From Nitrospirota bacterium (GTDB lineage: Bacteria > Nitrospirota > UBA9217), in NCBI GenBank assembly GCA_963796285.1, contig CAWCKW010000012.1, positions 256,001 to 320,000 on the forward strand: DNA of 64,000 bases, in the 5' to 3' direction. Positions 6,313 to 36,626 of this stretch are shown here, piece by piece; position 1 is the first letter of the stretch, and the number at the start of each line of letters is the position of its first letter. The notes beneath the pieces are model-generated. The model saw only the letters and a list, made by a program, of their open reading frames with translations. It had not been told where the DNA came from and made no database searches. Both the position numbers and the translations under genes were made by a program.

Positions 6313-6388
6313 TGGAGGCGGCGATCGGATTTGAACCGATGAATGAAGGTTTTGCAGACCTCTGCCTTAGCCACTTGGCTACGCCGCC
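6313..6388 (-). tRNA. tRNA-Cys(GCA)
   Basis: Reverse complement GGCGGCGTAGCCAAGTGGCTAAGGCAGAGGTCTGCAAAACCTTCATTCATCGGTTCAAATCCGATCGCCGCCTCCA: cloverleaf, GCA anticodon, CCA end. Confidence 0.97.
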
Positions 6389-7058: not shown

Positions 7059-7348
7059 GCGGACACCTTAACATACAATAACGAGGAACGTCAATCTGTT
7101 TTTCACCAGTGATTATCAGCAACCCTATGCGTGAAATATTACAGACCCTCCAATCAAAAGAAAGTGCGATTTTTTTGAATTGATAATCTGGGTGAGCGTT
7201 GTTTAAGGTAAATACCATTAAGTATGATAAATCATCATATTAGACTCGTTTTTTCGAGAGAGGTGATTATTATTTATTTTTGTTGTCAAAAGGTGGTTTT
7301 TATTGATATATTCATAACCGACGCGTTCAAGAAAGGGTGGCAGGAATC

Positions 7349-9262
7349 ATGGTGGAACAAAAGCTTACGACAAGAAAAAAATACCTCATAAAGATTGCCG
7401 CGTTTTTGATCTTCCTGTTGCAACTCCTTTCGAAGTTTACTCCTGCTTCAGCGCAAACCGCTGAAGAAAAGAATTTCCTGCTGATGTATTTCAAGGAGGA
7501 GGAACTTGTGGTGGAATCACCCACCAGGAGCCCGAAGCCCGTTTCCCAGGTCGCGGAGAACGTCACGGTCGTTACGGCCGCGGACATTGAGCTCATGAAC
7601 GCGCATACGCTCGCGGACGTGCTGAATACCGTCACCGGGGTCCAGGTATTCATGAACGGAGGACCCGGCCAAGCAGCATATGGGTATATCCAGGGCTCCG
7701 AGCAGAGACACGTTGCGGTCTTCATCGATGGTGTTTCCTTAAACAATCTCGGATCAGAGAACGTGGAACTCGGGATGGTCCCGGTCCAGAACATCGAGAA
7801 GATCGAGATCATCAAAGGACCTGCATCCTCAGCGTGGGGCTCGGCCCTCGGGGGCGTGGTGAACATCATCACCAAGTCGGGAAGCATGGACAATCAGGGC
7901 GGGACGCTCTCCGCATCTTACGGGACAAAAAATACAGACGATTTCCGGGCCGAGGCACGGGGCAAACAGGACAAGGTTGGTTATTATATCACTGCCGGGA
8001 GGCTCCAGTCGGATGGCCTGACAACGCACATGGGCGTCGGCGAAAATAACGGCTATGCGAAACTGACTTATGATTTTACCGAGAAGACCAACATTCTTTT
8101 CACCTTTGGGTATGAGAAAACTTCCCGAGACACGGGGGAATACGCGCCATACGATTTGTCCTTTCACAATACCTGGGAAAGCATTTTTTCATCTCTTGCG
8201 ATCAATTCCGCGATCAGCAAGGACATGGAGCTGGATGTTTCCGTCCGGACGATTCGCCAGGACTATATTAATGATACTTCCACGCTGAGTTCCGGCCTCT
8301 TACTATCGCCGTCGGAGCACGATGCTGATAAGGGATATGGCGCGAGTGCAAAACTCACCTATAAAAACACGTTCCAGACGATCGTGCTCGGCGCGGACTA
8401 TGATGATCAGAAGCTGACATCAAACCTCATAGCGGAGGGCGAACAGGGGATGAAAAAATGGGCCGTGTTCCTGAACGATACCCTGCTATTCAACAAGCTC
8501 GCAATAACGCCCGGCCTCCGGTATGAAAAAACAGATACGAGCGGAGATTCGGCTAGCCCGAGCCTGGGCATGACCTACAGCCTTGCGAACAGCACCATTC
8601 TCAGGGCATACGCGGCAAAAGGCTTCAACATCCCGTCTTTGGGAGATAGATTTGGAGACATCGCGTCATTTTATGTCGCAAATCCCGATTTGAAGGCTGA
8701 GACGGTCTGGTCGTATCAGGCGGGTGTTGAGACCGCTGCCCTGAAATACCTCTGGCTAAAGATGTCGGCATTCAGAAACGAAATACGTGATGCCCTCACT
8801 ACTGAACCTACCTCAACCGCGGGCACCCAGTTTACCTATGTAAATAAAGGGAGGCAGAGGCGCCAGGGCTTCGAGGTCGAGGCGAAGACTGTCCCTGTTT
8901 ACCATTTTTCTCTTTCCGCTGGCGCGGAAATCATCGACGCGAAAGACCTTGACACAGGCGAGAGAGTAACGGACATTCCGACCCGTGTATATGACCTGGG
9001 CCTTCATTACAATGACGAACATACGTTCAAGGCCCTTCTCCAGGGCCGCTATATTGACTGGAATGATCAGACACAGCTTAAGGGGGAATATGGTTCCTTT
9101 GTGTTCGATCTTAGTATGATCAAAAAGATCCTGGAGCGCAAGGACGCCTCTTTGGAGGCCTTTGCGAATGTTCATAACATATTTAACGGAAAACAGTATA
9201 TATTATCGGTCTACAAAAACCCAGAACGGTGGTTCGAAGGGGGAATACGATATAAGTTTTAA
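7349..9262 (+). CDS. TonB-dependent outer-membrane receptor
   Basis: Signal peptide, plug motif VFIDGV...IEKIEIIKGPASSAWGSALGGVVNIITK, NPDLKAE, C-terminal ..GGIRYKF. Confidence 0.92.
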   Translation: MVEQKLTTRKKYLIKIAAFLIFLLQLLSKFTPASAQTAEEKNFLLMYFKEEELVVESPTRSPKPVSQVAENVTVVTAADIELMNAHTLADVLNTVTGVQVFMNGGPGQAAYGYIQGSEQRHVAVFIDGVSLNNLGSENVELGMVPVQNIEKIEIIKGPASSAWGSALGGVVNIITKSGSMDNQGGTLSASYGTKNTDDFRAEARGKQDKVGYYITAGRLQSDGLTTHMGVGENNGYAKLTYDFTEKTNILFTFGYEKTSRDTGEYAPYDLSFHNTWESIFSSLAINSAISKDMELDVSVRTIRQDYINDTSTLSSGLLLSPSEHDADKGYGASAKLTYKNTFQTIVLGADYDDQKLTSNLIAEGEQGMKKWAVFLNDTLLFNKLAITPGLRYEKTDTSGDSASPSLGMTYSLANSTILRAYAAKGFNIPSLGDRFGDIASFYVANPDLKAETVWSYQAGVETAALKYLWLKMSAFRNEIRDALTTEPTSTAGTQFTYVNKGRQRRQGFEVEAKTVPVYHFSLSAGAEIIDAKDLDTGERVTDIPTRVYDLGLHYNDEHTFKALLQGRYIDWNDQTQLKGEYGSFVFDLSMIKKILERKDASLEAFANVHNIFNGKQYILSVYKNPERWFEGGIRYKF

Positions 9263-9413
9263 CCTGTAGACAAACACCCGCATCGGCGGACGCCCCTTTC
9301 ACTTTTTTAGATGTCATTCTTGAAATATTTTATCAGGAACTCGGTTTATTAAAACCATAGCCCCGATAGAAGCGCTCGGGGAAGATGAAAAGAGAGGAAA
9401 GGGGGTGAGGTGA

Positions 9414-9569
9414 ATGGCGGTCAAGAAAAAAGCAACTAAGAAAAAAGCTACCAAGAAGAAGGCGACGAAGAAGAAGGCAACAAAAAAGAAAGCTGCAAAG
9501 AAGAAAGTTACAAAAAAAGTAGCCCCAAAAGCTTTGTGCTGCAGCTTCGGGCCGACAAGGTTTATCTAA
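9414..9569 (+). CDS. 51-aa Lys-rich putative RiPP precursor peptide (not in the ORF track)
   Basis: SD-like GGGGGTGAGGTGA then ATG; MAV(KKKAT)4KKKAAKKKVTKKVAPKALCCSFGPTRFI*; synonymous variation between repeat units; directly upstream of a radical SAM/SPASM gene. Confidence 0.85.
   Translation: MAVKKKATKKKATKKKATKKKATKKKAAKKKVTKKVAPKALCCSFGPTRFI
9423..9512 (+). repeat. Six imperfect 15-bp tandem repeats encoding KKKA(T/A)/KKKVT
   Basis: aagaaaaaagcaact aagaaaaaagctacc aagaagaaggcgacg aagaagaaggcaaca aaaaagaaagctgca aagaagaaagttaca. Confidence 0.9.
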
Positions 9570-9588
9570 CAGCAACTCCAACCTTAAA

Positions 9589-9614
9589 TGAGGGAGGGCA
9601 AGCGCCCTCCCTCA
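9589..9614 (+). terminator. GC-rich stem-loop between precursor and maturase (leaky terminator or stability element)
   Basis: tgagggagggc-aagc-gccctccctca, perfect 11-bp stem followed by gaattttc. Confidence 0.7.
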
Positions 9615-9634
9615 GAATTTTCATTGAGACGTTC

Positions 9635-10935
9635 ATGACCCTTTCCCGATACTGCAAAATATATCGACATCCCGAAGACAAGGGACTCAGAAAACTTTTT
9701 TCAACCAGTACCATGGCCGCGGTGGACGTTACGCCCGAAGTGCTTCGGGACATTAAAAAGGGTGCACTCTCTGCGAAAAGTGAAAAGAAAACCCTCAAAG
9801 AACTCGGGTTCCTCGTAAAGAATGCTGAGTCTGAGCAACGAGAGCTGCTCGGTTTCATCGATGATTTCAATGCACAGACTACGTCATTCAGCGCCGTCGT
9901 GGTTCTGAATCTTGACTGCAACCTCGCGTGCAGGTATTGCTTCGAAGGCAAAAGAAAGGGCAAATTCATAACATGTCCGCTGAAACGGCGGACGATTTCG
10001 TGGATTTTGTAAGGATCCCGTGATCTCAAGGGCAAGGATGAGATCAATGTCGTCTTTTACGGCGGCGAACCGCTCCTCAGCATGGACACGATTCTCCGCA
10101 TCTCCGAAGAAGATGACGCGTTGTTGCCGATAAAAAGAAGCTGAAATATTAGTTTTGCCTTAATAACCAACGGCACGCTTCTTACCAGGCGCACTGTGGA
10201 AGAAATTGTTGCCCCTCGGCCTTACGACCGCCGGAATGACCCTCGACGGTCCCCGTGAGGTGCACGACCTCTTCAGACCCTTCAAGACCGGCAAAGGCTC
10301 CTTCGATGTTATCGTAAAAAATATTCAGGACGTATGTTCTTTGATCGACGTGCAGGTAGGTGGAAATTATACCAAGGACCATTACTAGGGAATTTCCTCT
10401 GCTGCTCGATCATTTTGCCGAGAAAGGCATAAGTCCCGACAAGATTTCCTCAGTTGATTTCAATCCCGTAATCAATGAACACAATGAATTCGCTCCGCCC
10501 GATTTTCATGACGGTTGCATGTCGACAAATGAGCCGTGGCTGTCCGAGGCGACCGTTTTCCTGAGGGAAGAAACATTGAAACGAGGCTTTCACACGCGTG
10601 CACTCATGCCCTCGGTTTGCGCCATAGAGCGGCCCAACAGCATCATTGTCAATTACGACGGCACGTTGTATAAGTGCCCGGGGCTGCTCGGGAGAAAGGA
10701 CTTCTGTGTCGGCGATCTGACGAATGGAATCATTGATTACAGCGCGTCACACTCGCTCGACAACTGGAAAAATGAAAAATGCCTCTCATGCAGTTATCTG
10801 CCGCTCTGTTTCGGCGGATGCAGATATATGAAACTCGTGCGCGACGGTCATATGCAGGGCGTCGATTGCAAAAAACAATATCTCGACGTGATTCTCGAGG
10901 AACTTGTCCTGCAGGACATTACCTACGATCTTTAA
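9635..10935 (+). CDS. Radical SAM/SPASM peptide maturase, geopeptide-maturase-like (several frameshifts)
   Basis: MTLSRYCKIY N-terminus, CNLACRYC, FYGGEPLL, ITNGTLL, TLDGPREVHD, SPASM cysteines (CAIE..YKCP..CLSCSYLPLCFGGC..DCKK) spread over several frames. Confidence 0.85.
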
Positions 10936-11072
10936 GAAATCCCAAATATGAAGCGATATTTTCATCCCATAGTTCAAGAGCAAATGTCTTACGCAGGTTA
11001 AGAAGATTTAAATTTAGCTCCTGGGTATTATTTGTAAATCGGGCCTTGAGAGTTGGTTTATAATTATCCTCC

Positions 11073-11993
11073 GTGTATACCCTATTCCGACATATTCGAG
11101 CACGATCCCGAAATCTATTCCTTGCCACAGCCGCGTTCGCGGCGTTCGCAGCCAGCTGTCCTGTACCCGCTGAATCGTTCGAGTTAGTCGTCGTTAAAAA
11201 TGCCGATTTGAAACCGTATCAGGATGTGCTCCGTGGCATCAAGGATTCCTGCAGCTGCACTGTGAGGGAATTAAAACTTCCTGAAGATGAAGGTGTGGAG
11301 AAGATACTGAAAGCTTCCCCGAACGCGGTCCTCGCAATCGGGACGAGCGTGTTCAAAAAGGTCAAGGAGATTAAAGGCCTTCCGGTGATTTACACCATGG
11401 TGATGCCGTCGGAGACCGCCGGTCCGCTGCGCCCGAACATCTCCGGCGTGAGCATGGACAGTGACCCCGCAGAATCCATCGCCGCCATAATGGGGGTGTT
11501 TTCCAAGGCTAAGAGTATCGGGATCGTATATGATCCGCACTACACTGCGGCGCTCGTGGAAGAGGCGGTAAAAGCCGCAGCATCCGCGGGAATCGATCTG
11601 GTGGTAAAGCAGGCGCATGACCAGCGTGAAATACCTCGTCTTTTGGATGAGTTGCGCGGCAGGATCGATGTCCTCTGGATGCTGCCTGACCCGACCGTGA
11701 TCAATACCGCAATGGTCGATTATCTGCTCAATTTTTCCTTTCAGTACAATGTGCCGATCTTCTCCTTTTCCAATAAATATGTCGAGATGGGGGCCGTGGC
11801 GGCCCTGGTTGCGGACCCCTATAATATGGGGGTGCAGGCGGGCGAAATCGTCAACAGGCTGTCAGCCGGCCGGTCGAACGCAACGAGAGCATATGCGAGA
11901 ACATCTCACCTCACGATAAACACAAAGGTGGCAGCAAAGATGGGTCTTAAGATCAAGGACGAAATACTCAGGAGGGCGAATATCTTTGAGTAG
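11073..11993 (+). CDS. ABC-type substrate-binding protein (ABC_sub_bind/DUF534-like)
   Basis: Signal peptide; LPVIYTMV, NISGVS, IGIVYDP, DVLWMLPD, INTKVAAKMGL motifs; no permease or ATPase nearby. Confidence 0.85.
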   Translation: MYTLFRHIRARSRNLFLATAAFAAFAASCPVPAESFELVVVKNADLKPYQDVLRGIKDSCSCTVRELKLPEDEGVEKILKASPNAVLAIGTSVFKKVKEIKGLPVIYTMVMPSETAGPLRPNISGVSMDSDPAESIAAIMGVFSKAKSIGIVYDPHYTAALVEEAVKAAASAGIDLVVKQAHDQREIPRLLDELRGRIDVLWMLPDPTVINTAMVDYLLNFSFQYNVPIFSFSNKYVEMGAVAALVADPYNMGVQAGEIVNRLSAGRSNATRAYARTSHLTINTKVAAKMGLKIKDEILRRANIFE

Positions 11994-13452
11994 ATTAAAA
12001 GAACGCTTCGGCCTCAAGGTGATTTTCTCTTTCGTAGTGGTCATCATCGTCGTGCTGTCGATATTCACCGTGTTCTCAGTTGTCCGTGAAGGAAATAAGG
12101 CGAAAGAAGACCTGAGGGAACAGGGGAACATGCTGGCAGTCCTTCTTTCGCGCAGCCTTATCGTGGGTGTTTTTGCGGAAAACGATAAATTACTGACGGA
12201 TGCGGCGGAGGGCATCATGGGCCTCAAGAATGTCGATTCGGTGACGATTTACAACGCAGATTTAAAAATGCTCAGCGCCGGCGGCAAGACTTCATCCGAA
12301 AAGAATTCGCTTACGGTCCGGAAAACCGGGGTACCTGACGTAAGACGCGTTCAATCGTTGACCATCGTGGAAACGCCGAATGCCTTTGAGTTTATGGAGC
12401 CCATCTTGATCAAATCCGGTTTGAACGAGGACGAGTCGCTGTATTTCGGCCACGGAAACGAGGACAAGACGGAAAAAGTGATAGGATATGTGAGAATCGT
12501 TTTGAGCAAGGACGCCTATCATAAAGAGATTTTGTCCGTAGTTCTCCGAAATGCCGCAATCATGTTGATCTTCATCTCTTCAAGCATCGTCATCATCTAT
12601 TTTGCGGTAAAAAAGGTCACCCGGCCGCTCGATACGTTGACCAGGAGCGTGAAGGCCCTCGAAAAGGGGATGCGCGTCGAACAGATGCCGGTTGAGACCG
12701 AGGATGAGATAGGAAACCTTGCTTCGGCCTTTAATGCCATGATCATCGCGCGAGGCCTGGCCGAGGAATCGCTGCGCTCCATGGTTTCGGAAATGTCGTT
12801 GATGGAATCGCGGATCGAGGAACGGGAACGACATCTTATCGCAGCGGATCTTCACGATTTTGTCGGGCAAAACCTCGCGGTGCTGTTGTTCAAGTTGGCT
12901 GCGTTGCGGAAAATGCTCTCTTCTCCGGAGGTTATCCATCAAGTGGAGGAACTACGTGAACTCATCGGGAAAACCATCCAGTATACGAGGTCGCTGACGG
13001 TTGAACTCAGCCCTCCCATTTTGTCCGAAATCGGATTTTTGGCCGCTGTAGAGTCTCTTGCCGAGGGAATCCAAAAAACGCACGGGATACGGATCAGTAT
13101 CTCGGATGACGGTCAACTCAAACAGGCCGATGACGAAACTCGATATCTCCTCTTCAGGATCGTCCGTGAACTCCTGATGAATATCGTAAAACACGCGCAG
13201 GCGAGTTCAGTAAAAATAAGTCTCGCCAGAAACGAAGACATCATGCATATTGCCGTTGAAGACAACGGCATCGGATTCGACACGGAAAAGGGTGCCGGAA
13301 GGAACAGTGGATTTGGACTGTTTACGATCCGCGAGCGGTTGAAACGATTGGGAGGATATTTCGCGGTTGATTCCAGGCCTGGTTTTGGAACGAAGGTGAT
13401 CCTGTCTGTTCCGCTCAAATCAAAACCGGGTGATCAGAAAGGGATAGTATGA
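11986..13452 (+). CDS. Membrane sensor histidine kinase (periplasmic sensor, HAMP, HisKA_3, HATPase)
   Basis: Two TM helices, HAMP (TRPL..EDEIGNLASAFNAM), ERERHLIAADLHDFVGQNL, NIVKHA, DNGIGF, GFGL. Confidence 0.92.
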   Translation: MSRLKERFGLKVIFSFVVVIIVVLSIFTVFSVVREGNKAKEDLREQGNMLAVLLSRSLIVGVFAENDKLLTDAAEGIMGLKNVDSVTIYNADLKMLSAGGKTSSEKNSLTVRKTGVPDVRRVQSLTIVETPNAFEFMEPILIKSGLNEDESLYFGHGNEDKTEKVIGYVRIVLSKDAYHKEILSVVLRNAAIMLIFISSSIVIIYFAVKKVTRPLDTLTRSVKALEKGMRVEQMPVETEDEIGNLASAFNAMIIARGLAEESLRSMVSEMSLMESRIEERERHLIAADLHDFVGQNLAVLLFKLAALRKMLSSPEVIHQVEELRELIGKTIQYTRSLTVELSPPILSEIGFLAAVESLAEGIQKTHGIRISISDDGQLKQADDETRYLLFRIVRELLMNIVKHAQASSVKISLARNEDIMHIAVEDNGIGFDTEKGAGRNSGFGLFTIRERLKRLGGYFAVDSRPGFGTKVILSVPLKSKPGDQKGIV

Positions 13453-14093
13453 GCATAAGAATTCTTCTTACCGATGATCACAAACTTCTGCGCGAGGGTC
13501 TGCATGCATTGATCGAAGAACAGCCGGACATGACCGTTATTGCGGAGGCAGAAGACGGAAGATCCACTGTGCAGCTTGCCGCAAAGCTGAAGCCCGATAT
13601 CATTGTGATGGACATCTCCATGCCTGGCATGAATGGAATGGAAGCCACCCGCCAAATCCTGTCCAAAAACCCCGGCATCAAGGTGCTTGCACTTTCAATG
13701 CATACTGACAGGCGGTTCATTGTAGAGATGCTCAGTGCGGGTGCCTCCGGTTATCTCTTGAAAGATTGCGCTTTTGAGGAATTGATCTGCGCCCTGCACG
13801 CCCTGGCCGATCAGAGAACGTATCTCAGCCCGAAGATCTGCGATCTGGTGGTCAAAGATTATGCTTGCCGCAACTCAAAATCGACGTTATCGTCCTCTGT
13901 TCTGTCGGCAAGAGAGCGTGAAGTGCTGCAGCTTCTGGCCGAGGGCAAATCCACCCGGAAAATTGCATCCATCCTCCATGTAGGCATGAAGACCGTTGAA
14001 ACCTACCGCCAACAAATCATGGAGAAGCTCGACATCCACACCATCGCAGAACTTACCAAGTTTGCCATCCGCGAAGGTCTCACCTCCCTGTAA
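13449..14093 (+). CDS. NarL/LuxR-family response regulator
   Basis: REC (DDH, VMDISMP, K) plus HTH LSAREREVLQLLAEGKSTRKIA...TVETYRQQIMEKL. Confidence 0.95.
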   Translation: MSIRILLTDDHKLLREGLHALIEEQPDMTVIAEAEDGRSTVQLAAKLKPDIIVMDISMPGMNGMEATRQILSKNPGIKVLALSMHTDRRFIVEMLSAGASGYLLKDCAFEELICALHALADQRTYLSPKICDLVVKDYACRNSKSTLSSSVLSAREREVLQLLAEGKSTRKIASILHVGMKTVETYRQQIMEKLDIHTIAELTKFAIREGLTSL

Positions 14094-14171
14094 AGAAGGG
14101 GCGTATCGGCATACGGTCCCTGCACCCCCGGCATCCATTATCCATCGGCTATCAGGAAAAACGAGGCTGAA

Positions 14172-14217
14172 AATCAGGGAATCCCTGATTGTTATTTTCC
14201 GTATTCTCTGCTATTAA
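14172..14217 (+). promoter_or_regulatory. Palindromic operator plus extended -10
   Basis: AATCAGGGA-A-TCCCTGATT (perfect 9-1-9) at 14172-14190; TGCTATTAA at 14209-14217. Confidence 0.55.
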
Positions 14218-14355
14218 ACTTAAAAGGCAGTTGGCTGAAAATTTGCCCCATGAGAGATGATTACGCTCTAACGGGGTAAACGCAGATAACCGTCGATAAA
14301 GCATAGTGAATAGCTCATTTCAGAGAGTAATCCTTTTAAATGGAGCGAGGAGAAT

Positions 14356-15375
14356 ATGGCAGCGGAAAATGCGGATAATAAGGACATGATGCGCGGAGAC
14401 CCATGGCTGTTCACAACGCTTAGCGAAACTGTGGGCGAAGGTGTGACCCTGAGCGACAGGACAGGCCGGTTCGCTTTGTATAACTCGAATATGAGAAAAA
14501 TAACCGGATATACCGATGCAGAGACCGGCACGTTGAATGAGTATTTGGTGCTGTTGTTTCAAGATTCTGCCGGAAGTGAGAGAGCGATGTCGGAAGTCCA
14601 TGAAATATTTCACAGAGAATGCCGCGACAGAGAGACCGTGATCCGTGCTAAAGACGGAAATTCAAAAACCGTACTTGTATCCACATCGCCTGTGGAGTAT
14701 CAGGGCGTGCATTTTCTGTTACATTCCTACCGTGACATTACCTGCAGCAAGACTGTGGAGGAAAAGCTCCTTATGGCCGAAAAACGGTATCGCGTGCTTT
14801 GTGAACAATCATTTGACGCCCTTGTGATCATCGATCCGGTAACGTTTCTTCCGATCGATTTCAACGACAAGGCACCGGGCCTTTTTGGGTATACAAAAGA
14901 AGAGTTCACCCGCATAAAATTTGATACGTTAGAAGTTCGCGGAATTTTTAGAAATAAAAGATCTCTCAATAAGCCGAAGCCTGCTGAAGAAGGGGACAAT
15001 TTTGAAACCGAAGTTCGTACGAAAAACGCGGGATTAAAGAATGTCAAAGTAAGCATGCGGATCGTCGAACTATCGGGAAAACGTTCATTCCAGTGCATCT
15101 TTCATGAGATTAGTGATAGTAAGAGTGAAGTGATCAAGAAGGACAAGGGAACTGTTGAATTGCACAACACACGTGCGAAAACCGTGATGTTGAAAGGCAC
15201 GATTCCCATCTGCTATGTTTGTAGAAAAATTTATGACGAAAAGGGCTTCTGGCGCCCGATGGAATCATCCACCAGCGAACGCTCGGATGTTTTGTTCAGT
15301 CACGAATTATGCCCGGTTTGCGAGGAAAGATTTTACCCGAAACACTTAAGTAAGCGTACACGCGAAGAAACGTAA
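14356..15375 (+). CDS. PAS-PAS protein with C-terminal four-cysteine domain, no kinase
   Basis: Two PAS folds followed by IPICYVCRKI...SHELCPVC. Confidence 0.8.
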   Translation: MAAENADNKDMMRGDPWLFTTLSETVGEGVTLSDRTGRFALYNSNMRKITGYTDAETGTLNEYLVLLFQDSAGSERAMSEVHEIFHRECRDRETVIRAKDGNSKTVLVSTSPVEYQGVHFLLHSYRDITCSKTVEEKLLMAEKRYRVLCEQSFDALVIIDPVTFLPIDFNDKAPGLFGYTKEEFTRIKFDTLEVRGIFRNKRSLNKPKPAEEGDNFETEVRTKNAGLKNVKVSMRIVELSGKRSFQCIFHEISDSKSEVIKKDKGTVELHNTRAKTVMLKGTIPICYVCRKIYDEKGFWRPMESSTSERSDVLFSHELCPVCEERFYPKHLSKRTREET

Positions 15376-15459
15376 GCGAGAATCGACACGGTTGATCAAC
15401 AATGAAGCAATACAGTCGGAGTCACTCAACGCGTGATGAGACAACAAAAAGGTGATGGC

Positions 15460-15903
15460 ATGAGTATCAGAGTTCTTCTTGCTGATGATCACAAGCTGTT
15501 ACGGGAGGGGCTTCGCGCTTTGATCGAAGATCAGCCGCAAATGGAAGTGATCGCGGAGGCGGAAGACGGGCTGACTGCGCTGCAGCTTGTTGGTGAATTA
15601 TCGCCCGACGTCGTCGTCATGGACATTTCCATGCCTCGAATGAACGGCATGGAAGCCACCCGTCAAATCATTTCCACGGCCCCCGGCGTTAAAGTCCTTG
15701 CACTGTCAATGCATGACGATGATCGATTTGTGGAGGAGATGCGTAACGCGGGCGCATCCGGCTATTTGTTGAAAGATTGTGCTTTTGATGAATTGATTCA
15801 TGCCATTCATGCTGTGGTCGAACAGGGAACGTACTTAAGTCCGAAGATAAACGTTCCGAGAGATTGTCAACGAGCCGCCGTCGGCAGAGATATTGTGAGG
15901 TGA
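15460..15903 (+). CDS. Receiver-only NarL-type response regulator (paralog of 13449..14093, no HTH)
   Basis: Intact REC motifs; ends shortly after TYLSPKI and the next gene starts 4 nt later. Confidence 0.85.
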   Translation: MSIRVLLADDHKLLREGLRALIEDQPQMEVIAEAEDGLTALQLVGELSPDVVVMDISMPRMNGMEATRQIISTAPGVKVLALSMHDDDRFVEEMRNAGASGYLLKDCAFDELIHAIHAVVEQGTYLSPKINVPRDCQRAAVGRDIVR

Positions 15904-15907
15904 ACAC

Positions 15908-17221
15908 ATGAAACACCCGTTGCATATACTTCACCTGGAAGAGAATGCCAAGGATGCCGAGCGTATTCGGAGAAACCTCGCAGAAGCGGAAATGGCGTGT
16001 GAGGTAACGAGGGTCGAGACGCTTAGGGATTTCGAAGCGGCCCTGGGACAGGGCGGGTTTGATCTCATCCTGACTAATTATTCCCCTCCTGCATTTGACG
16101 GACTTTCCGCGTTGAACATCGTAAAAGAGCGGCGACCGGAGATGCCCTTTATATTCGTAACGGGGTGGTTTGAAGAAGAAGCGGCCATTGAGGCCGTCAA
16201 ACAGGGGGCAACGGATTATGTGTATAAGCATCGGCTGTCCCCACGGCTCGTGTCCGCGGTTAAACGCGCGCTGGCGGAGGCGGATGAAAAAAAAGCGCGC
16301 AGAATTGCGGAAGAGGAGATGACGGAAACCGTAACGCGGTATCGGGCGCTATACGAAAAGGCCCTTCATTGCATATACGTCCATGATCTTGACGGAAACT
16401 TCCTGGACGCGAATGAAGCGGCTCTAAACCTACTGGGCTACACCAAGAACGAAGTCCTGTCCCTCAACATAATGTCCCTCATTGATAAGAACCAATTGCC
16501 CATGGTATTCAAGACGATCAATGAGATCAGGGAGCGAGGGTCGCAAAAATCCCCCAGACAGTTCAAGTTAAGAAAGAAAAACGGAGAAGATGTCTGGCTG
16601 GAAACGGATGCATGCCTTATATGCCGGAACGAAAAGCCTTACGCCATTCAGGGGATCGCCCTCGACATCACCGTACGGAAACGGTTGGAGTGGGAATTGC
16701 GTAAACTGTCGCTCATCGACAGCCTTACCGGGCTGTATAACCGGCGGGGTTTTTTCACGCATGCCGAACATCAAATGAAGATTGTCAATCGGACAAAAAA
16801 CAGGTTGACCCTGGTGTTTGCGGACGTGGATGACCTGAAGTCCATTAATGATACGCGGGGACATGGTGAGGGAGACAATGTCCTCGTGGAAACGGCAACA
16901 TTTCTGAAGACGGTATTTCGGGAATCGGACATTATCGCCCGCGTCGGCGGCGATGAATTCGTTGTTCTGGCGCTTGAGAACACCGGCACGGACGCGGCAT
17001 CGGGCTTGGTTCGCCTGACGGCAAATCTCGAAGCATTCAACTCCTCGCGGAACAGCGTCGAGCCGTTGTCGATCAGCGTGGGCTTCGCCTGCTATCAGCC
17101 AGATCAACCCTGTTCCATCGATGAGCTGCTCGCCCAGGCGGACAGGCTGATGTATAAGCAGAAGGGTGAAAAACGTCGGTACATCGTGGAGAACGGCGGA
17201 ACCGTTTACTCCGACTCATGA
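15908..17221 (+). CDS. REC-PAS-GGDEF diguanylate cyclase
   Basis: DSLTGLYNRRGF, RESD I-site, RVGGDEF; REC phospho-Asp position reads LILTNY. Confidence 0.92.
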   Translation: MKHPLHILHLEENAKDAERIRRNLAEAEMACEVTRVETLRDFEAALGQGGFDLILTNYSPPAFDGLSALNIVKERRPEMPFIFVTGWFEEEAAIEAVKQGATDYVYKHRLSPRLVSAVKRALAEADEKKARRIAEEEMTETVTRYRALYEKALHCIYVHDLDGNFLDANEAALNLLGYTKNEVLSLNIMSLIDKNQLPMVFKTINEIRERGSQKSPRQFKLRKKNGEDVWLETDACLICRNEKPYAIQGIALDITVRKRLEWELRKLSLIDSLTGLYNRRGFFTHAEHQMKIVNRTKNRLTLVFADVDDLKSINDTRGHGEGDNVLVETATFLKTVFRESDIIARVGGDEFVVLALENTGTDAASGLVRLTANLEAFNSSRNSVEPLSISVGFACYQPDQPCSIDELLAQADRLMYKQKGEKRRYIVENGGTVYSDS

Positions 17222-17397
17222 GACTGGTGATTATCATGACCTCACAATTTACAGATTGCATGCCGACAGAACGAAACTGTCGGAGGATCGGGACAAGATG
17301 ACCGGCCGGCGGATGAGGTGGATTTGCCATAATATATTTGGCGTAACTGCGGATAATCGTCGTAAATAATAATATCGCCAGGGGGGGACAGAACATC

Positions 17398-18924
17398 ATG
17401 ACGTCGGGCCCGAGAATTCTCTGCGTTGATGATAGCAAAACGATCCGCAATATCCTTGAGGAGTTTCTTGTCTCGAATGGATATGAAGTCATCCTTTCGG
17501 AGAACGGCGAGCAAGCCCTGGAAATCATCAATGCACAGAAGATCGACCTTGTGCTCCTTGATGTGATACTGCCGAAATTGAACGGTTACGAGGTATGCAA
17601 GAGGATCAAGAACGACGAGCGGCAGCGGAACATCCCTGTCGCGATAGTGACCCGTCTGACGTCGAAGGAGGAACGCATCAGGGGCATTGAAGCAGGGGCG
17701 GAGGATTTCATCAACAAACCCTTCGATCAGACGGAAATTCTCTCCCGGATCAGAATGCTTCTCAAGATGAAGAATCTCCATGACAGCCTTGATTCTGCCT
17801 ATGACACAATAACGGCCCTGACCGGGTTCGGCAAAAAGATGGTACTGTCGTTCGACCCGCTGAATTACAATATCATTTCCTCGTTCGACGTAATCGTCAA
17901 TAATATCATGCTGAAAACGCACAATTCAGCGAACAAACCGAAAATGGTCATTGTCGGTTATATCGACGAAAACAACGCATGGCAATGGCACCTGTTTGAA
18001 TCTTTTTATAAGAGCATCAACAGGATTTGGATAAAACTCGATATCCATAACTGCTTGAATCTTTCCGGAAATTCCGATACAGGCCGGTTGAAGACATTTT
18101 ATAATACGGACGATCTTAATGATGTCGACATACGTTCCCTGGTTGCAAAAATGGAACAAATTTCCGTCATGGTGTCGAATGTGGTTTGTTTCGTGGAAAA
18201 TGCGTTCTGTGTATTCGCACTCAACTATGATAAACAAGTGTCCCGCTATGAAGCCGAGGTACTGAACAGCATCGCCATGCAGAGCCTGTTTATGAAATCC
18301 CTTGCTTCCCAGGTGAAGGAAACGGAGGATTCCTTTGATTATCTCGTTCGCGCCCTCGCACGGGCGTCTGAAACAAATGATGAGGGCACGGGGAACCATG
18401 TCATGCGGGTCGGCGAATACTGTGCGGTTATTGCAAAGGAACTTAACCTCTCCGATAAATTCATCAAGAATATCCGTATTCAGGCCACTTTACACGATGT
18501 GGGTAACCTCCACGTTCGCCCTGATATCCTCAAAAAGGCCGGGAAGCTGACACCGAAGGAATATGAGGAGATGAAGAACCATACCATTTCCGGGGCAACA
18601 ATACTGGGTGACCATGTGAGGTTGTCTCTGGCAAAAAAGGTGGTGCTGTCACACCACGAGCGTTGGGACGGGAGCGGGTACCCATATGGATTGAAAGGGG
18701 AACAGATACCGATCGAGGCAAGGATAATGAACATCGCGGACCAGTATGATGCCCTGCGGAATGCACGGGTGTACAAACCCAGTTTTGATCATTCGAGGAC
18801 ATATGCCATCCTCACCGAGGGCGACGGAAGAACCATGCCCAATCACTTCGACCCGCAGGTGCTCCACGCATTCAAGAATACGGCCTCTCAATTCGAAGAT
18901 ATTTATGAGAAAATGAGAGGGTAA
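17398..18924 (+). CDS. REC + HD-GYP c-di-GMP phosphodiesterase
   Basis: REC (VDDS, LLDVILP), TGNHVMRV, LHDVG, HHERWDGSGYPYGL, IADQYDAL. Confidence 0.92.
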   Translation: MTSGPRILCVDDSKTIRNILEEFLVSNGYEVILSENGEQALEIINAQKIDLVLLDVILPKLNGYEVCKRIKNDERQRNIPVAIVTRLTSKEERIRGIEAGAEDFINKPFDQTEILSRIRMLLKMKNLHDSLDSAYDTITALTGFGKKMVLSFDPLNYNIISSFDVIVNNIMLKTHNSANKPKMVIVGYIDENNAWQWHLFESFYKSINRIWIKLDIHNCLNLSGNSDTGRLKTFYNTDDLNDVDIRSLVAKMEQISVMVSNVVCFVENAFCVFALNYDKQVSRYEAEVLNSIAMQSLFMKSLASQVKETEDSFDYLVRALARASETNDEGTGNHVMRVGEYCAVIAKELNLSDKFIKNIRIQATLHDVGNLHVRPDILKKAGKLTPKEYEEMKNHTISGATILGDHVRLSLAKKVVLSHHERWDGSGYPYGLKGEQIPIEARIMNIADQYDALRNARVYKPSFDHSRTYAILTEGDGRTMPNHFDPQVLHAFKNTASQFEDIYEKMRG

Positions 18925-19035
18925 AACGACCCCTTTATTCATCCCACGCTGAAGCGAAATACGACTGTCCTCCGCAGGGCGCTCTCTACCGCTGGTTTTT
19001 TTCTGAAAAGCAAATTCCTTCCACTCTATTTTTTC

Positions 19036-19076: not shown

Positions 19077-20645
19077 ATGGCAATACCAGACCTCATAAAA
19101 CTGCTCGAAAGTCTCCACCCGCTCGAACACAAGGTACTCCTCTCGTTTCAGCAGGGAGGGACCTTGTCTGCACCTGAACTCCTGAAAGCATCGGGCCTCG
19201 ACGAGTCCCGCCTTGACATGGCCTCAGGCTGGCTCCAGCCCAAGGGGCTTGCTCGAGGTAAAGGACGAATCCATCACCTCGCTTGTTTCACTTACCGAAA
19301 CAGGAAGGGAATACCTGGAAAAAGGCACTCCCGAGATGAGGATCATCAGCGCCCTCCGTGAAGGAAAACAGTTTACGGTCAAAGACATCATCCAGACCTG
19401 GGGTATGGACCCGTCCGAAGTGAGTTCTGCTGTTGGAGCGCTCAAAGAGGCGAAGGTCGTGCAGATCGCCCAGGGCGGCATCCTCGCTCTTGATCGCTGG
19501 GGCCGACATCTCGGTCATATGAGTTTCTGCCGGCTCTTATCAAGACCGTGGCCGGGAAGGATCAGAGTGATCTGACCTCGTTCTCCGAAGCCCAGCAGGC
19601 TGCGATCAATGCAAACTTCCACAAGCGCGGAAAGTCCAAAGGTCTCTTCCGCATCAGTGAAAAGAAAAATCGCATATACACGCTTACCAGTGACGGGCAG
19701 GCATTGCTCCATCTGATCGAGGAACGCGGTGTTGTTGCCGAAGAGGCTTCAATGCTCACTCCTGAGATGCTGAAGCAGGGTACCTGGAAGAACAAAAAGT
19801 TCCGCGCTTACAATATCGCGCTCAACCCCCCGCGCCAGAGCATCGGCAGGAAGCATCCCTACAAAGAGTTCCTCGATTTCGTGAAATACAAGTTCGTCGG
19901 CATGGGGTTCGAGGAGATGCGCGGGCCGCTCGTGGAGAACGAGTTCTGGGACATGGACGCATTGTACATGCCGCAGTTCCATCCGGCACGGAACATTCAC
20001 GATGTATATTTCGTAAAAGAACCCGCGGTGTGCAGGGAGATCGAGTCCCCGTTTGGAAAGAACGTGGCCGCGGCACACAAGGACGGCGGCAAGACCGGGT
20101 CGACCGGCTGGCGTTATCCGTTTGATATCGAACGCGCAAAGCGGCTGATCCTCCGCAGCCAGGGGACGGCCGTATCGGCGCGCACGCTTGCATCGGGACC
20201 GAAGGTCCCGGGGAAATACTTTTCCATCGCGCGCTGTTTCCGGTATGACTCGGTTGATGCCACTCATGCGCCTGACTTCTACCAGGTGGAGGGCATTGTG
20301 CTCGGCGAGGACATCAATTTCAGGGCGCTGCTCGGGCTCCTGCAGCTCTTTGGGCAGGAGATCGCCAAGGCGGGGGAGTTCCAGTTCAGGCCGGCCTATT
20401 TCCCGTTCACCGAGCCTTCGGTGGAACTGCACGTGAAGCACCCCGAACTCGGCTGGATGGAACTCGGCGGGGCGGGCATCTTCAGACCCGAGGTCACCAA
20501 GCCGCTTGGCGTGGATGTACCGGTGATCGCCTGGGGCCTCGGCCTCGACCGCATGGCCATGGTGGCGCTCGGGATCAGGGATATCCGCGATCTGTTCTCG
20601 AGGGACCTGGATTTCATAAGAACGAAAAAAATACAATTGGGATGA
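19077..20645 (+). CDS. pheS: Phenylalanine--tRNA ligase alpha subunit, archaeal/spirochaete long type (frameshifted)
   Basis: GRKHPY, FWDMDALYMPQFHPAR, CFRYDSVDATH, YFPFTEPS, WGLGLDR; ~230-aa N-terminal extension over three frames. Confidence 0.92.
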
Positions 20646-20648
20646 TAT

Positions 20649-20743
20649 ACCACGGATACACACGGATAAGCACGGATACAGGAATCAGAAAATATGGTGT
20701 TAAGAATCCTTCTGATCCATGACCATCCGTGATCATCCGTGGT
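20649..20743. repeat. Intergenic inverted array of 10-bp repeats
   Basis: (cacggatann)x3 faced by atccatg/atccgtg/atccgtggt between pheS and pheT. Confidence 0.8.
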
Positions 20744-20761
20744 TAACAATGTATTTAAACT

Positions 20762-22466
20762 ATGCCTACAATCGACATAAAAAAACGCGACCTCGACACC
20801 CTCATCGGGAAAAAGCTCTCTATTGCCGTCCTTGAGAAGAAGCTGATGCTCGCCAAGGCTGAACTGAAGGAGTACAACGCGGAGACCGACGAACTCAAGG
20901 TCGAGCTGTCGGACAGCAACCGGCCGGACCTCTGGTCCGCAGAAGGTATTGCGCGCCAGATCCGCATCGCATTGTCCGGCAAGCCTGAAACCTATCCCTT
21001 TTTCAAGCATGGCGGAAAGGCCAACGAGGGAGATCAGGGTCGCGAAGGGAATGAGATCCGTGAGGCCGTTCATCGCGGCCTGCACCGCGAGCGGCATCCG
21101 TATGAACGACGACGTGCTGGCGCAGATGATCCAGAGCCAGGACAAACTCTCGGAGATCTTCGGCAGGAAGCGGACCACGGTATCGATCGGCATCTATGAG
21201 CTCGACCGCATCGCATTTCCGGTGGACTACCGGCTCGCGGAGCCGTCCTCTCTGTCGTTCATCCCCCTCGGCATGGATGAGAGGCTTACGCTCGCCGGTA
21301 TCCTCGAACGCCATCCCAAGGGCATTGCCTACGGTGGTATCGTCAAGCCCTTCCCGCAGTATCCGGTGCTGACAGACAGCATGGGCCGCGTTCTCTCATT
21401 TCCTCCGATCATCAACAGCAGGGAGATCGGCGAGGTGAAGCCGAATACAAAAAATGTTCTGATCGAGGTGACGGGCACAGACCTGCGGATGACGGTGCTC
21501 ACGCTCAATATCCTTGCAACGAGCTTTTACGACCGGGGCGCGGACATCGAGCCGGTGCTGGTGACCTATCCGTATGAAACCGGGACTCGGGAAGCGCGTT
21601 ACCTTCCCCTCTGACACGTCCGGAACGTTCACGGTCCCCCTTGCTAAATTCTCAGCCGGCCTCGGTGAGGATGTTTCGTCCGCGGACGTGAAAAAACGGC
21701 TCAGTTCCTACGGCCACATCGTGAGCGCCGGACGCGGAACGCTTTCCGTACATGTGCCGCCGTATCGCGACGACATCATGCACCCCATGGACCTGGTTGA
21801 AGACTATGCCATCAGTCAGGGGTTACGATTCCTTCGAGCCGGTCATGCCGCGGCAATCGACGGTCGGATCTATTTCCCGGATCGAATTATTGTCCGATAT
21901 TGTGCGCGGCCACATGGTCGGCTCGGGTTTTCAGGAGATCATGTCGAATATTCTTTGTTCGCGGGAAGAGCTTGAATACGCCATGCCGGAGGGAGAGAAA
22001 CTGGTCGAGGTGGACAACGTGATGTCGCTTGCCTACTCCGTACTCAGGAACCGGGTTATCCCGTCACTCATGAACGTTGAAGCGGCCAGCTCAAAGGCCT
22101 TCTATCCCGCACCGGACGTTCGAGGTTGGCGAAGTCGCTGTGTTCGATAAGAAGGAGAACATGGGCTCACGCACTGACCTGAACCTGGGTGCGATCATTT
22201 CTCACCCGGCCGCCAATTTCTCGGAAATGCATTCAACGCTCGATATTTTGCTGTACTACCTCGGACTGGAATATAAACTGGAGCCATCGGAACATCCGCT
22301 CTTCATACCGGGCCGCTGCGGACGGGTGGTCACAGATGGTATTGAATTGGGTCTTATCGGGGAAGTTCGGCCCGACGTCCTCGAACTCACACAGATCACC
22401 ATGCCTTGCGCGGCCTTCGAGATCAGCCTGAACAGGGTATTGAATGCTGTGCCTGCCGGCCGCTGA
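20762..22466 (+). CDS. pheT: Phenylalanine--tRNA ligase beta subunit, short archaeal/eukaryotic type (frameshifted)
   Basis: MPTID...NRPDLWSAEGIAR, LSFPPIINS, PPYRDDIMHPMDLVEDYAI, FIPGRCG; ~560 aa with no OB-fold or ferredoxin-fold anticodon domain. Confidence 0.9.
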
Positions 22467-22503
22467 CACGGTCAGCCCCATACCATCCGCAGGAGGGATC
22501 ACC

Positions 22504-34887: not shown

Positions 34888-35374
34888 ATGAGGTCAAGGA
34901 ACAAGACAACCTATTTTGAGCGCGTCCCGGGAGTACCCGAGCCGATTGTCGTTGAAGTCAAGCGGCGGGTCCGGTTCAATGAGGCCGATCCCATGGCGAT
35001 CGCGTGGCATGGGCGGTATCCTCTTTATTTCGAGGAGGCGTCCGAGGAGCTTGGCAGAAAGTGCGGTCTGTCGTATGCGGACTATTTCGAAGCCGAGCTT
35101 GCGCGCGCCAGTTGTCGAATTCCACATCGATTACTATAAACCGCTGTTCCTCGATGAGGAATTTACGATCAAGGCATCGCTGATCTGGCACGAAGGGTCG
35201 CGGCTGAATATCGAGTATCTCCTGATCAAACAGGACAAGAGCATTGCGTCGAGCGCTTACATGGTACATCTGTTCACCGACCATCAGACCGGAGAGCCCA
35301 TTATGGTTTCACCGGAATTACTTGAACGCTGCCGAAGGAGATGGAAGGCAGGGGAGTTCCATCGCACACCATGA
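34888..35374 (+). CDS. Acyl-CoA/ACP thioesterase (4HBT/ApeK-like; frameshifted)
   Basis: RVRFNEADPMAIAWHGRYPLYFE, IDYYKPL. Confidence 0.85.
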
Positions 35375-36626
35375 AACCTGTCGTCGTATCGGCGGATATG
35401 CTGACGCCCTATGGCAAGGGAACGGACGCATGCTGGCAGGGTTTGCTTGCAGGGCAGAGCGCCATATCCCGGGTCAGCCGTTTCAAAACCGCGGCGTTCC
35501 ACTCGGACTATGCGGGTATCATCAGCGGCCTGCGGTATCACGAACAAACCTCCCTGGTCATGCAGATGTTGCAGTCCTTGTTCGAAGGAATAGCTGTCCC
35601 CGAAGACGCGAAACTTCTGCTGGCAACGACCAAAGGGGAGATCGACCTGCTCGAACAGAGCATGCTTGAGAACAAGGGCGATGTTGCTGACGCAGTGGCC
35701 AGCAAGCTCATCAGGAAGGTGGCCGGCCTGACCAATGCGAGGGGCGGCGGGCTGGTGCTTTCGGCAGCCTGCACGTCATCAGCAGCGGCAGCAGCGCATG
35801 CAGCTGCCATGGTCCGGAACGGTCATGCGGACTGCGTGCTTGTGGTTGCCTGCGACAGCGTTACGGAGTTCATTTTTTCCGGGTTCTCATCGCTCATGGC
35901 GTTGGACAAACAGCCTGCACGGCCCTTTGACAAGTATCAGGGCAGGCCTGAACGTGGGCGAGGCCGCGGCTTATGCACTAATTATGAGCGAAGAACGCGC
36001 AGTACGCGAGAACCGTCCTGTTCTCGGGACGATAGCAGGCTGGGGCCTGAGCGATGACGCAAACCACATGACCGGCCCATCTCGCGAGAGCGAGGGCCTG
36101 ATCCTGGCCATCACGAAAGCGCTTGTCGTCCGCTGGCATCGGTCCCGATGATGTGGGTGTTATCTCCGCGCACGGCACCGGCACCGTTTATAACGACCAG
36201 ATGGAGATGCGGGCATTTCGTACGGTCTTTCAAGATCGCGAACGTCCGGTGTATTCCATAAAGGGCGGCATCGGACATACCATGGGTGCGGCCGGACTTG
36301 TGGAGATGATCATTGCGCTCTGCGCGCTCAGGGAGCGGAAGTCGCCTCCGACAGTGAACCTGAAAGATCCTGACGACGATGCGCGGGGATGGGTCTCGGA
36401 CCATCAGCAGCCGGTCCGCGAACAGACGTTGGCCCTGGTGACGAACGCGGGTTTCAGCGGAGTGAACACGGCATTGCTGCTGGGATTGATTAATAAGTAC
36501 GGTCTCACGAAAGTAAACAACGTGAATGTTATGCTAAGAACGGTCATGATCCCGAAGATTTTATCGAGGAATCAGGTATTAAACCGTATTCTCGATTGCG
36601 AATATTCTTGCGGATTACAGCTATAA
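35371..36626 (+). CDS. Beta-ketoacyl-ACP synthase KS2 (frameshifted; true stop may be near 36500)
   Basis: SAACTSS, GEAAA, SAHGTGT, GHTMGAAG, GFSGVN. Confidence 0.85.

Follow-up and report, generated by a model that had tools for sequence, protein, structure and literature searches.

A radical SAM peptide cassette with a TonB-dependent receptor and a periplasmic sensor, conserved across Nitrospirota and Desulfobacterota

This study concerns a 64,000-nt stretch of DNA (the window) from a Nitrospirota bacterium (GTDB lineage Nitrospirota; UBA9217), located at positions 256,001 to 320,000 of contig CAWCKW010000012.1 in assembly GCA_963796285.1, and a cassette of six co-directional genes on its + strand (7337-14093; window coordinates are used throughout). 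The cassette, which is widespread among anaerobic bacteria with two membranes, encodes a TonB-dependent outer-membrane receptor, a short precursor peptide, a radical S-adenosylmethionine (SAM)/SPASM maturase, an orphan periplasmic binding protein, a membrane histidine kinase and a response regulator. We find that the genes for receptor, precursor, maturase, binding protein and kinase are linked across two phyla, that the periplasmic sensor domain of the kinase occurs almost only with the cassette, and that no inner-membrane importer accompanies the binding protein. We tentatively favour the reading that a secreted peptide, modified by the radical SAM enzyme, is re-imported through the receptor and sensed in the periplasm in a signalling role.

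Results

Conservation of the cassette in related genomes

We searched a profile built from four intact maturases against 185,579 species genomes, obtained 188 stretches with a relative and kept the best 80 loci. These belong mostly to metagenome-assembled genomes of Nitrospirota/Thermodesulfovibrionia and of Desulfobacterota, and the hosts are labelled as anaerobes of sediments, peat and groundwater. Clustering of open reading frames (ORFs) recovered the maturase in 79 of the 80 loci, the receptor in 73, the kinase/regulator in 60 and the binding protein in 55, followed by a 188-aa membrane protein in 12 and by any other family in at most 9. A neighbourhood count that takes contig ends into account scored 79 loci. 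By this count all 58 loci whose sequence extends 2300 nt or more upstream of the maturase have the receptor. Flanks of 5.5 kb or more upstream and 3.5 kb or more downstream are available for 36 loci; the binding protein is present in 32 of them and adjoins a kinase in 31. Among the 54 loci holding a binding protein, it adjoins the kinase in 47.

The order receptor, precursor, maturase, binding protein, kinase is found in 31 loci, and in 14 others the binding-protein/kinase pair lies divergently upstream of the receptor, so that it has a control region in common with the receptor operon. The linkage survives this rearrangement across phyla, which argues that the genes function together and is the strongest evidence in this analysis. 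An earlier note on the window, made from the sequence alone, had proposed checking for such co-occurrence; the receptor, precursor, maturase, binding protein and kinase genes are indeed found together in Nitrospirota and Desulfobacterota, in two gene orders. Some genomes carry several cassettes (for example L025/L039, L061/L069 and L066/L094, paired by isolate name).

No gene for an ATP-binding cassette (ABC) permease or ATPase recurs in the 80 neighbourhoods, nor does an inner-membrane importer, a reductase or a metal-responsive regulator. The 188-aa protein is a half-size major facilitator superfamily (MFS) protein with six helices (PF07690, E 5.9e-24, with NCBIfam matches to efflux pumps), encoded directly 3' of the maturase in 12 of the 80 loci (L064, L069, L071, L077, L085, L090-L094, L099 and L100), and it is the sole candidate exporter seen for the family. 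In the window the cassette is laid out as follows, all features on the + strand:

7283-7312, +, sigma-70-like promoter match upstream of the receptor gene (10 of 12 hexamer positions plus a TG extension; a consensus match only)
7337-9262, +, TonB-dependent outer-membrane receptor, 641 aa from GTG 7337 (ATG at 7349), with Plug and barrel domains
9414-9569, +, precursor peptide, 51 aa, with a Lys/Ala/Thr-rich leader followed by CC and 8 residues (CCSFGPTRFI)
9589-9614, +, hairpin with an 11-bp stem (8 G-C pairs) between the precursor and maturase genes
9635-10935, +, radical SAM/SPASM maturase, TIGR04280, its frame broken six times between 9965 and 10386 in this assembly
11073-11993, +, periplasmic solute-binding protein, PF04392 (ABC_sub_bind; E 1.9e-26)
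11986-13452, +, membrane histidine kinase: transmembrane helix (TM), periplasmic PDC/Cache-like sensor (residues ~32-186), TM, HAMP, HisKA_3, HATPase
13449-14093, +, NarL/FixJ-type response regulator: REC (PF00072, E 3.9e-29) and GerE helix-turn-helix (PF00196, E 1.4e-18)
14172-14190, +, terminator-like hairpin 3' of the regulator gene (a consensus match only)

The binding-protein gene overlaps the kinase gene by 8 nt and the kinase gene overlaps the regulator gene by 4 nt. Judged from its sequence, the hairpin at 14172-14190 is probably the end of the operon. Every gene that the earlier note had listed, from the TonB receptor to an HD-GYP gene further downstream, was found, and all lie on the + strand.

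Precursor peptides and the spacer hairpin

A small ORF with a Cys-Cys (CC) motif lies between receptor and maturase in 73 of the 80 related loci, so the tiny precursor proposed for the window is more than a chance ORF. The motif stands 7-11 residues from the end, with a tail mostly of 9 residues, and the core consensus is CC-x-G-A/G-F/L-I-P-F/L-R. Cores are otherwise very diverse: 72 of 74 peptides (the one in the window counted) have distinct cores, and the Cys-Cys pair is the sole invariant part. The precursor in the window has 51 codons behind a good Shine-Dalgarno sequence, is rich in Lys, Ala and Thr, and ends in ...ALCCSFGPTRFI. Leaders are of two kinds, 60 being short and 14, including that of the window, consisting of Lys-rich repeats, and a pattern I/V-x-I/V-L-x-K/D-G (for example KRIVVLKKGID) occurs in 45 of the 74 precursors. 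The (A/T)KKK-repeat leaders, found in the window and in L023-L028, L037, L038, L049, L061, L066, L072 and L080, resemble histone H1 and are served by the same enzyme family as the short leaders.

The NCBIfam model of the "geopeptide" precursor, TIGR04229 (22 positions, cut-off 30 bits), gave no match to the window peptide at E up to 10, and of the peptides of seven relatives it matched one (L084) at 15 bits, under its cut-off. No NCBIfam family matches the window precursor.

The spacer between precursor and maturase in the window folds at -27.1 kcal/mol. A stable fold (z < -2) is present in 60 of 66 related loci tested, with a median of -22.9 kcal/mol, and the hairpin at 9589-9614 is likely an attenuator or a transcript stabiliser.

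The maturase belongs to the geopeptide family

Pieces of the maturase match TIGR04280 ("geopeptide radical SAM maturase") with 108.5, 89.1 and 271.0 bits over profile positions 1-109, 180-247 and 248-427, or with 160.2, 85.7 and 268.6 bits for alternative pieces. These scores are far above those for any other family, and the curated cut-off of 400 bits is reached by no single frame. Read through six breaks, the window maturase aligns over its full length with intact members, whose scores are 565-574 bits. Both traits of TIGR04280 are present, namely the radical SAM CxxxCxxC motif (CNLACRYC, in the first piece) and the SPASM domain (TIGR04085, E 1.8e-14, in the last piece).

Weaker NCBIfam matches, far below their cut-offs, are to maturases of thioether or Cys-rich peptides (CefB, SCIFF, QhpD, PapB and CcpM), and the best solved relative is 5wgg (E 1.8e-24), which we take to be CteB, the SCIFF thioether maturase. 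Because these relatives are thioether-forming SPASM maturases, cross-links at the cysteines are to be expected. A structural model from 4 sequences had a mean predicted local distance difference test (pLDDT) score of 56.7, too poor for a fold search and usable only for the secondary structure of the first 80 residues. In this low-confidence model three strands followed by helices hint at a similarity to the leader-binding RiPP recognition element (RRE) domains of pathways for ribosomally synthesized and post-translationally modified peptides (RiPPs).

Frame breaks in the maturase gene

The maturase had been listed in the earlier note as one of the genes of the circuit; the gene is there, and it is not one open frame, which the note had overlooked. 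It is spread over three frames with stops at 10010 (TAA), 10142 (TGA) and 10386 (TAG). Frame-aware alignment to three intact homologues called for six corrections, every one of them a removal of extra letters from the window: ~9965-9971 (+2), 10015 (+1), 10115-10124 (+2), 10150 (+1), 10199-10205 (+1) and 10386 (+1). The CxxxCxxC, GGEPLL, NGTLL and SPASM cysteine motifs are all preserved in the stretches between the breaks, where no further stop occurs. Programmed frameshifting and an alternative genetic code were considered and rejected, as the stop codons are three different ones and the breaks consist of 1-2 inserted letters each, in sequence without repeats.

These breaks are very probably assembly errors. 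Other genes of the window are broken in the same way: pheT, which occupies a single place in the genome, is in five pieces (frames 2, 3, 1, 2 and 3), and two shifts that compensate each other leave pheS with two in-frame stops, although in same-genus matches the gene is open, at 525-526 aa in six of seven genomes and at 546 aa in the seventh. A PAS-HisKA kinase (843-1931) is severed from its own HATPase domain (2011-2355), and a ketoacyl synthase (within 35341-36626) is split at 36057/36123. We further compared the region 9300-11100 with contigs from four public runs of four studies. The extra letters at 9965-9970 are absent in all three covering runs, the letter at 10016 in the one covering run and the letter at 10387 in both covering runs. 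Between 10013 and 10228 an 8.5-kb contig (X2) has 209 letters against 214 in the window, a difference equal to the four lesions there; as the bins at 10093-10214 are without an aligned contig in all four runs, three of these lesions are judged from the length of the bridging X2 contig alone. In one run the contigs match the window letter for letter over 9300-9590, a span that contains the precursor, and over 11001-11100. The comparison contigs come from other samples or strains at a depth of 2.8-11, and so show intact close relatives rather than the source DNA itself. Because essential genes nearby are broken likewise and contigs of other runs are without the extra letters, the breaks in the maturase are probably not real.

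The other explanation applies to this copy only, namely that the maturase is a real pseudogene in a decaying cassette and that the cell at most takes up or senses the peptide of its neighbours. We consider this improbable, even though six breaks and three stops stand in the sequence, the maturase was not found in any of 8 same-genus genomes (two of which are without the entire 11.9-kb segment described below), and further parts of the cassette look reduced, the kinase being without a PAS domain of its nearest relatives and the leader without part of its N-terminal motif. A relative, G013, also holds a second, thoroughly decayed cassette. Against decay speak the essential single-copy pheS and pheT, together with the kinase and the ketoacyl synthase, which are broken in the same way, the motifs kept between the breaks with no extra stop, and the contigs of other samples or strains, which are free of the extra letters at the depth given above.

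In the second cassette of G013 (L019, G013:C6:164000-183000) the receptor, maturase, binding protein and kinase are each in several pieces, and an intact cassette (L016) lies elsewhere in that genome; the fragmentation may be either real decay of a redundant copy or further assembly error. Judging from the split genes of the window, pheS and pheT (region 19077-22470) among them, the assembly seems to contain clusters of insertion errors. Annotation of this genome will over-call pseudogenes.

The TonB-dependent receptor and a possible role in metal uptake

The receptor has a Plug domain (PF07715, E 2.9e-23), which begins at residue 69, and a barrel (PF00593, E 2.4e-38), and it is without an N-terminal signalling extension. 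The signal peptide is followed by a conserved stretch, EELVV, that resembles a TonB box. The receptor falls under all NCBIfam equivalog cut-offs, and its best sub-threshold matches are receptors for B12, heme and siderophores. Against the BtuB equivalogs it scores 165.8 bits (cut-off 599.7) and 145 bits (cut-off 836), and no riboswitch, cobalamin riboswitches included, was found at Rfam gathering thresholds in the whole window, which yielded three tRNAs only. With scores so far under the cut-offs and no cobalamin riboswitch, we rejected a B12 receptor identity. The earlier note had named binding of B12 or a siderophore as what would speak against a peptide ligand; on the sequence side, the receptor lies below the cut-offs for B12, heme and siderophore equivalogs.

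A receptor of this kind also suits a role as a metallophore-type public good. In that case the secreted CC-peptide would bind a scarce chalcophile metal in sulfidic, anoxic habitats and the receptor would retrieve the loaded peptide, while the binding protein and kinase would only report its arrival so that uptake and production are adjusted, as in siderophore-sensing two-component systems. We regard this role as unlikely, and several observations are nevertheless in its favour. No partner accompanies precursor and maturase more constantly than the receptor (58 of 58), and among the 36 best-flanked loci 2 to 4 are without the sensor pair. TonB receptors usually import scarce nutrients, and the best sub-threshold matches of this one are to receptors for such compounds (B12, heme and siderophores). 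Nothing in the core but the Cys-Cys pair is invariant, the record labels place the hosts among the anaerobes of sediments, peat and groundwater, and in methanobactin operons, too, a TonB receptor occurs together with a binding protein and a permease is missing. On the other hand, relatives of the maturase use up cysteine thiols for thioethers, so that the best metal ligands would be lost. The cores are very diverse (72 of 74 distinct), and an inner-membrane importer, a reductase or a metal-responsive regulator is not recurrent in the neighbourhoods. The close tie of the binding protein to a kinase with a cassette-specific sensor also stands against it.

Binding protein, kinase sensor and regulator

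The binding protein had been described as an orphan, and no ABC permease or ATPase gene lies beside the PF04392 gene, which overlaps the kinase gene and is translationally coupled to it. Its solved relatives are 3lkv and 3lft. Alignment of 39 kinases shows that the N-terminal TM, the periplasmic domain, the second TM and HAMP are conserved throughout, while the cytoplasmic part varies between HisKA_3 (the type in the window, with NarL-type regulators as partners), HisKA and hybrid forms. Some partner regulators measure ~447-458 aa, a size that would suit the NtrC family. The conservation of the sensor while the transmitter switches indicates that the periplasmic module, and not the output, belongs to the cassette.

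The distribution of the sensor agrees with this. Among 41 relatives of the window genome the maturase is over the cut-off in 5, and it is present but broken in the genome of the window itself. The kinase sensor region is found in all 6 maturase-bearing genomes and in 3 others (in one, of the same genus, at a contig edge, and in the other two as weak matches with an identity of 26%). By this sequence comparison the periplasmic sensor domain occurs almost only with the cassette.

A model of the sensor domain from 39 sequences gave a single PDC/Cache-like fold (mean pLDDT 75.9), whose Foldseek neighbours are the extracytoplasmic domains of WalK/YycG, of a LapD orthologue and of CitA (E ~1e-3, TMq 0.45-0.59). 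In complex prediction the mature binding protein and the kinase sensor reached a median ipSAE of 0.48 against 0.01 for the best control, which the tool rates as weak support; two of the three runs gave ~0.5 and one gave 0.01. Agreement between the runs was 2% of contacts or more, and the partners had pLDDT values of 65 or higher. For calibration, the mark is reached by 58 of 80 solved complexes and by 2 of 110 mismatched pairs; among those that reach it, scores of 0.60 or less belong to only 7 of the 80 solved complexes and to both of the mismatches. The earlier suggestion that the binding protein hands the peptide to the kinase has this weak support from docking.

The window kinase is without a PAS domain of ~130 aa that L045, L028, L042, L039, L023, L040 and L050 carry between HAMP and HisKA_3, and the gap is in frame.

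The 11.9-kb segment and downstream signalling genes

Downstream of the regulator gene the window holds four further signalling genes, which form one segment with the cassette:

14356-15375, +, PAS protein, downstream of the regulator gene
15433-15903, +, REC-only protein, downstream of the PAS gene
15908-17221, +, REC-PAS-GGDEF protein, downstream of the REC-only gene
17398-18924, +, REC-HD-GYP protein, the last of the four signalling genes
7104-19025, no strand, segment of 11.9 kb comprising the cassette and the four signalling genes, absent at a precise junction in two same-genus genomes

The earlier note had extended the circuit to a read-out through cyclic di-GMP by way of these genes, and this part we do not uphold. 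Matches to the diguanylate cyclase and HD-GYP queries lie within 10 kb in just 16 of the 80 loci, at varied positions and on varied strands, many of them through the shared REC domain, and in the window the terminator-like hairpin separates the regulator gene from them. In the genome of the window the four genes share the fate of the cassette in that they belong to the same segment. A blastn search with window positions 1-25000 joins 7103 to 19026 in the same-genus genomes G004 and G005, with a flank identity of 95% in one of the two. An imperfect 8-nt direct repeat marks the segment ends (CTGTTTTT / CTATTTTT), and GC content is 0.47-0.51 in the segment against 0.55-0.58 in the flanks. In L021, from another genus of the family, the cassette likewise lies directly upstream of pheS, which makes ancestral presence with later loss as likely as insertion.

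The REC-only protein, a paralogue of the NarL-type regulator, has 74% identity over 130 aa to the receiver of that regulator and is without a DNA-binding domain; it could be a duplicate that was truncated, or serve the same kinase as a phosphate sink. A tRNA gene (6316-6388, -) lies 0.7 kb left of the left junction of the segment. The ORFs scanned, which are part of those of the window, include no peptidase or exporter near the cassette, as had been noted before. The sole protease among them is a rhomboid protease with a zinc-ribbon tail (53499-54404, +), 40 kb downstream, and nothing ties it to the cassette.

Discussion

We propose that the precursor, with its invariant Cys-Cys pair and a tail of 7-11 residues, is modified by the cytoplasmic radical SAM/SPASM enzyme, which most likely cross-links the two cysteines to neighbouring residues, given its homology to thioether-forming maturases. 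The hairpin 3' of the precursor gene would keep the precursor transcript in excess over that of the enzyme. The peptide would exit by a route encoded outside the cassette (in some relatives possibly the half-size MFS pump encoded 3' of the maturase), and some protease would remove the leader. The mature peptide, of ~1 kDa and ~10-12 residues, would not fit through porins, and the private TonB receptor would thus serve to pump it back across the outer membrane. The orphan PF04392 protein would then capture it in the periplasm and dock on the PDC/Cache-like sensor of the kinase, which would phosphorylate the NarL-type regulator and thereby change transcription. In this way the cell would gauge how much of its own peptide is present outside, as a signal or a cue. 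The periplasm is the likely destination of the peptide, and sensing its likely purpose, because no inner-membrane importer is present and the binding-protein gene is coupled to that of a kinase with a cassette-specific sensor.

Several observations weigh against this proposal, in addition to the broken frame of the maturase. No leader peptidase or ABC exporter recurs in the 80 loci, and the genome of the window holds no specific copy of the half-size MFS protein, only generic full-length MFS genes with 20-28% identity to it. Four of the 36 best-flanked loci were scored without a binding protein; two of them, L059 and L102, showed one in a cruder table, leaving 2 to 4 loci that keep receptor, precursor and maturase without a sensor, so that uptake could be the core of the system and sensing accessory. 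One of the three docking runs gave almost nothing. In the window leader the K-R-I-T that follows the first two residues in its nearest relatives is missing. As regards autoinduction, a comparison of 8 regions of 460 nt upstream of receptor genes, by 9-mers with up to one mismatch, yielded no common operator; these regions share only A/T-rich words and ordinary sigma-70-like hexamers.

The known ligands of the binding-protein family belong on the same side, since solved PF04392 structures hold only free L-Trp, L-Tyr or L-Phe (PMC10443332, Table 1). They lend some weight to a further explanation, in which the peptide is not the ligand at all: receptor, binding protein and kinase would sense something from outside, for example an aromatic amino acid, a peptide of foreign origin or a cofactor, and merely switch on a peptide that acts elsewhere, as an antimicrobial or inside the cell. 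Two-component systems commonly regulate RiPP clusters. A radical SAM enzyme, a short precursor and a TonB-dependent transporter are combined in the itf cluster of Bacteroides thetaiotaomicron and in a Parabacteroides cluster that also has a two-component system, and the portions of these reports available to us propose no sensing loop (PMC11002830, PMC9389541). In the same portions, those clusters differ from the present cassette in carrying a peptidase-containing ABC exporter, YcaO and nucleotidyltransferases, in having no orphan binding protein and in the lack of a proposed uptake-and-sense loop (PMC11002830, PMC9389541). We nevertheless find this explanation improbable, as the receptor gene directly precedes the precursor in the same operon across two phyla, and a producer has little reason to link an importer so tightly to a peptide that is not imported. 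The cassette is also without the immunity gene or exporter expected of a bacteriocin cluster.

Between a signal and a metallophore the sequence does not decide; both roles fit, the metallophore almost as well. For signalling speak the consumption of thiols by this class of enzyme, the very diverse cores, the several cassettes per genome and the lack of any metal-related neighbour, while the constant receptor and the 2 to 4 loci without a sensor speak for uptake as the core. The quorum-sensing-like circuit proposed in the earlier note retains its conserved unit with a periplasmic sensor, and quorum sensing becomes one of at least two roles that fit this unit. That the cassette is a true peptide quorum-sensing channel of diderm anaerobes, in which the outer membrane acts as a gate for a cross-linked CC-peptide with a private TonB receptor and a binding-protein/kinase read-out, is possible, though on balance we think it rather unlikely.

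The closest system in the databases is the geopeptide system of NCBIfam (precursor TIGR04229 and maturase TIGR04280; model type hypoth_equivalog), which the window shares in the maturase family and in the CC precursor directly upstream of it; the window precursor differs in that it misses TIGR04229 and has a leader made of a long Lys/Ala-rich repeat. The thioether SPASM maturases (SCIFF/CteB, PapB, QhpD and CefB) are alike in their radical SAM core, SPASM domain and Cys-containing substrate, but the substrate in the window has only two adjacent cysteines and a very short core.

Sensor kinases that depend on a binding protein are known from LuxP-LuxQ, TorT-TorS and ChvE-VirA. They resemble the cassette in the orphan periplasmic binding protein beside a membrane kinase, the lack of an ABC permease and the PDC/PAS-like periplasmic domain, whereas the binding protein in the window belongs to PF04392 and the ligand is presumed to be a ribosomal peptide, which would depend on a TonB receptor to enter the periplasm. 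Methanobactin is taken up by the TonB receptor MbnT and the binding protein MbnE, and siderophores are sensed by PfeS/PfeR and by FecA-FecR-FecI. These systems share with our proposal the re-import of a self-made compound through a TonB receptor, a periplasmic binding protein and a link to regulation. In contrast to methanobactin, the only modifying enzyme in the window is a radical SAM/SPASM enzyme rather than MbnBC, and a multidrug and toxic compound extrusion (MATE) exporter is absent; in contrast to FecA-type sensing, the receptor is without an N-terminal signalling extension and sensing would proceed by the binding protein and a two-component system. Peptide quorum sensing in Gram-positive bacteria, as in Agr and ComCDE, likewise unites a ribosomal peptide, a membrane kinase and a response regulator at one locus, with diverse cores, but the cassette in the window is without a dedicated exporter or protease, and its peptide would have to cross the outer membrane actively and be sensed through a binding protein.

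We found no paper on the geopeptide or TIGR04280 in the open literature, a scope outside which lie subscription journals and supplements, so that a study may exist. Likewise no paper was found that joins a radical SAM enzyme with a TonB-dependent receptor, a precursor peptide and a histidine kinase, and a broader search of the literature returned reviews and genome reports. Kinases that work through binding proteins, and the uptake of a RiPP (methanobactin) by way of a receptor and a binding protein, are each known already. What is new is the combination of a modified peptide with a receptor, a binding protein and a kinase, together with the cassette-specific sensor, and the 80 loci examined here document the linkage of the geopeptide family to these three partners.

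Peptide signalling is a textbook matter for Gram-positive bacteria, while diderms are thought to use small diffusible molecules, partly because peptides fail to pass the outer membrane. Taken as one unit, the cassette offers a concrete and testable way round this barrier. If it is a quorum channel, it would be a new architecture of peptide signalling in two-membrane bacteria, in which orthogonal channels would arise from the diversity of the cores and from the several cassettes of a genome; if the peptide is instead a metal carrier, peptide metallophores would gain a new radical SAM class, at work in sulfidic habitats. All four components, namely precursor, enzyme, binding protein and sensor domain, are small enough for expression in a laboratory host, which makes the hypothesis directly testable. 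In either role, as the literature searched held no experimental study of the family, the chemistry of the enzyme on the Cys-Cys motif would be new ground.

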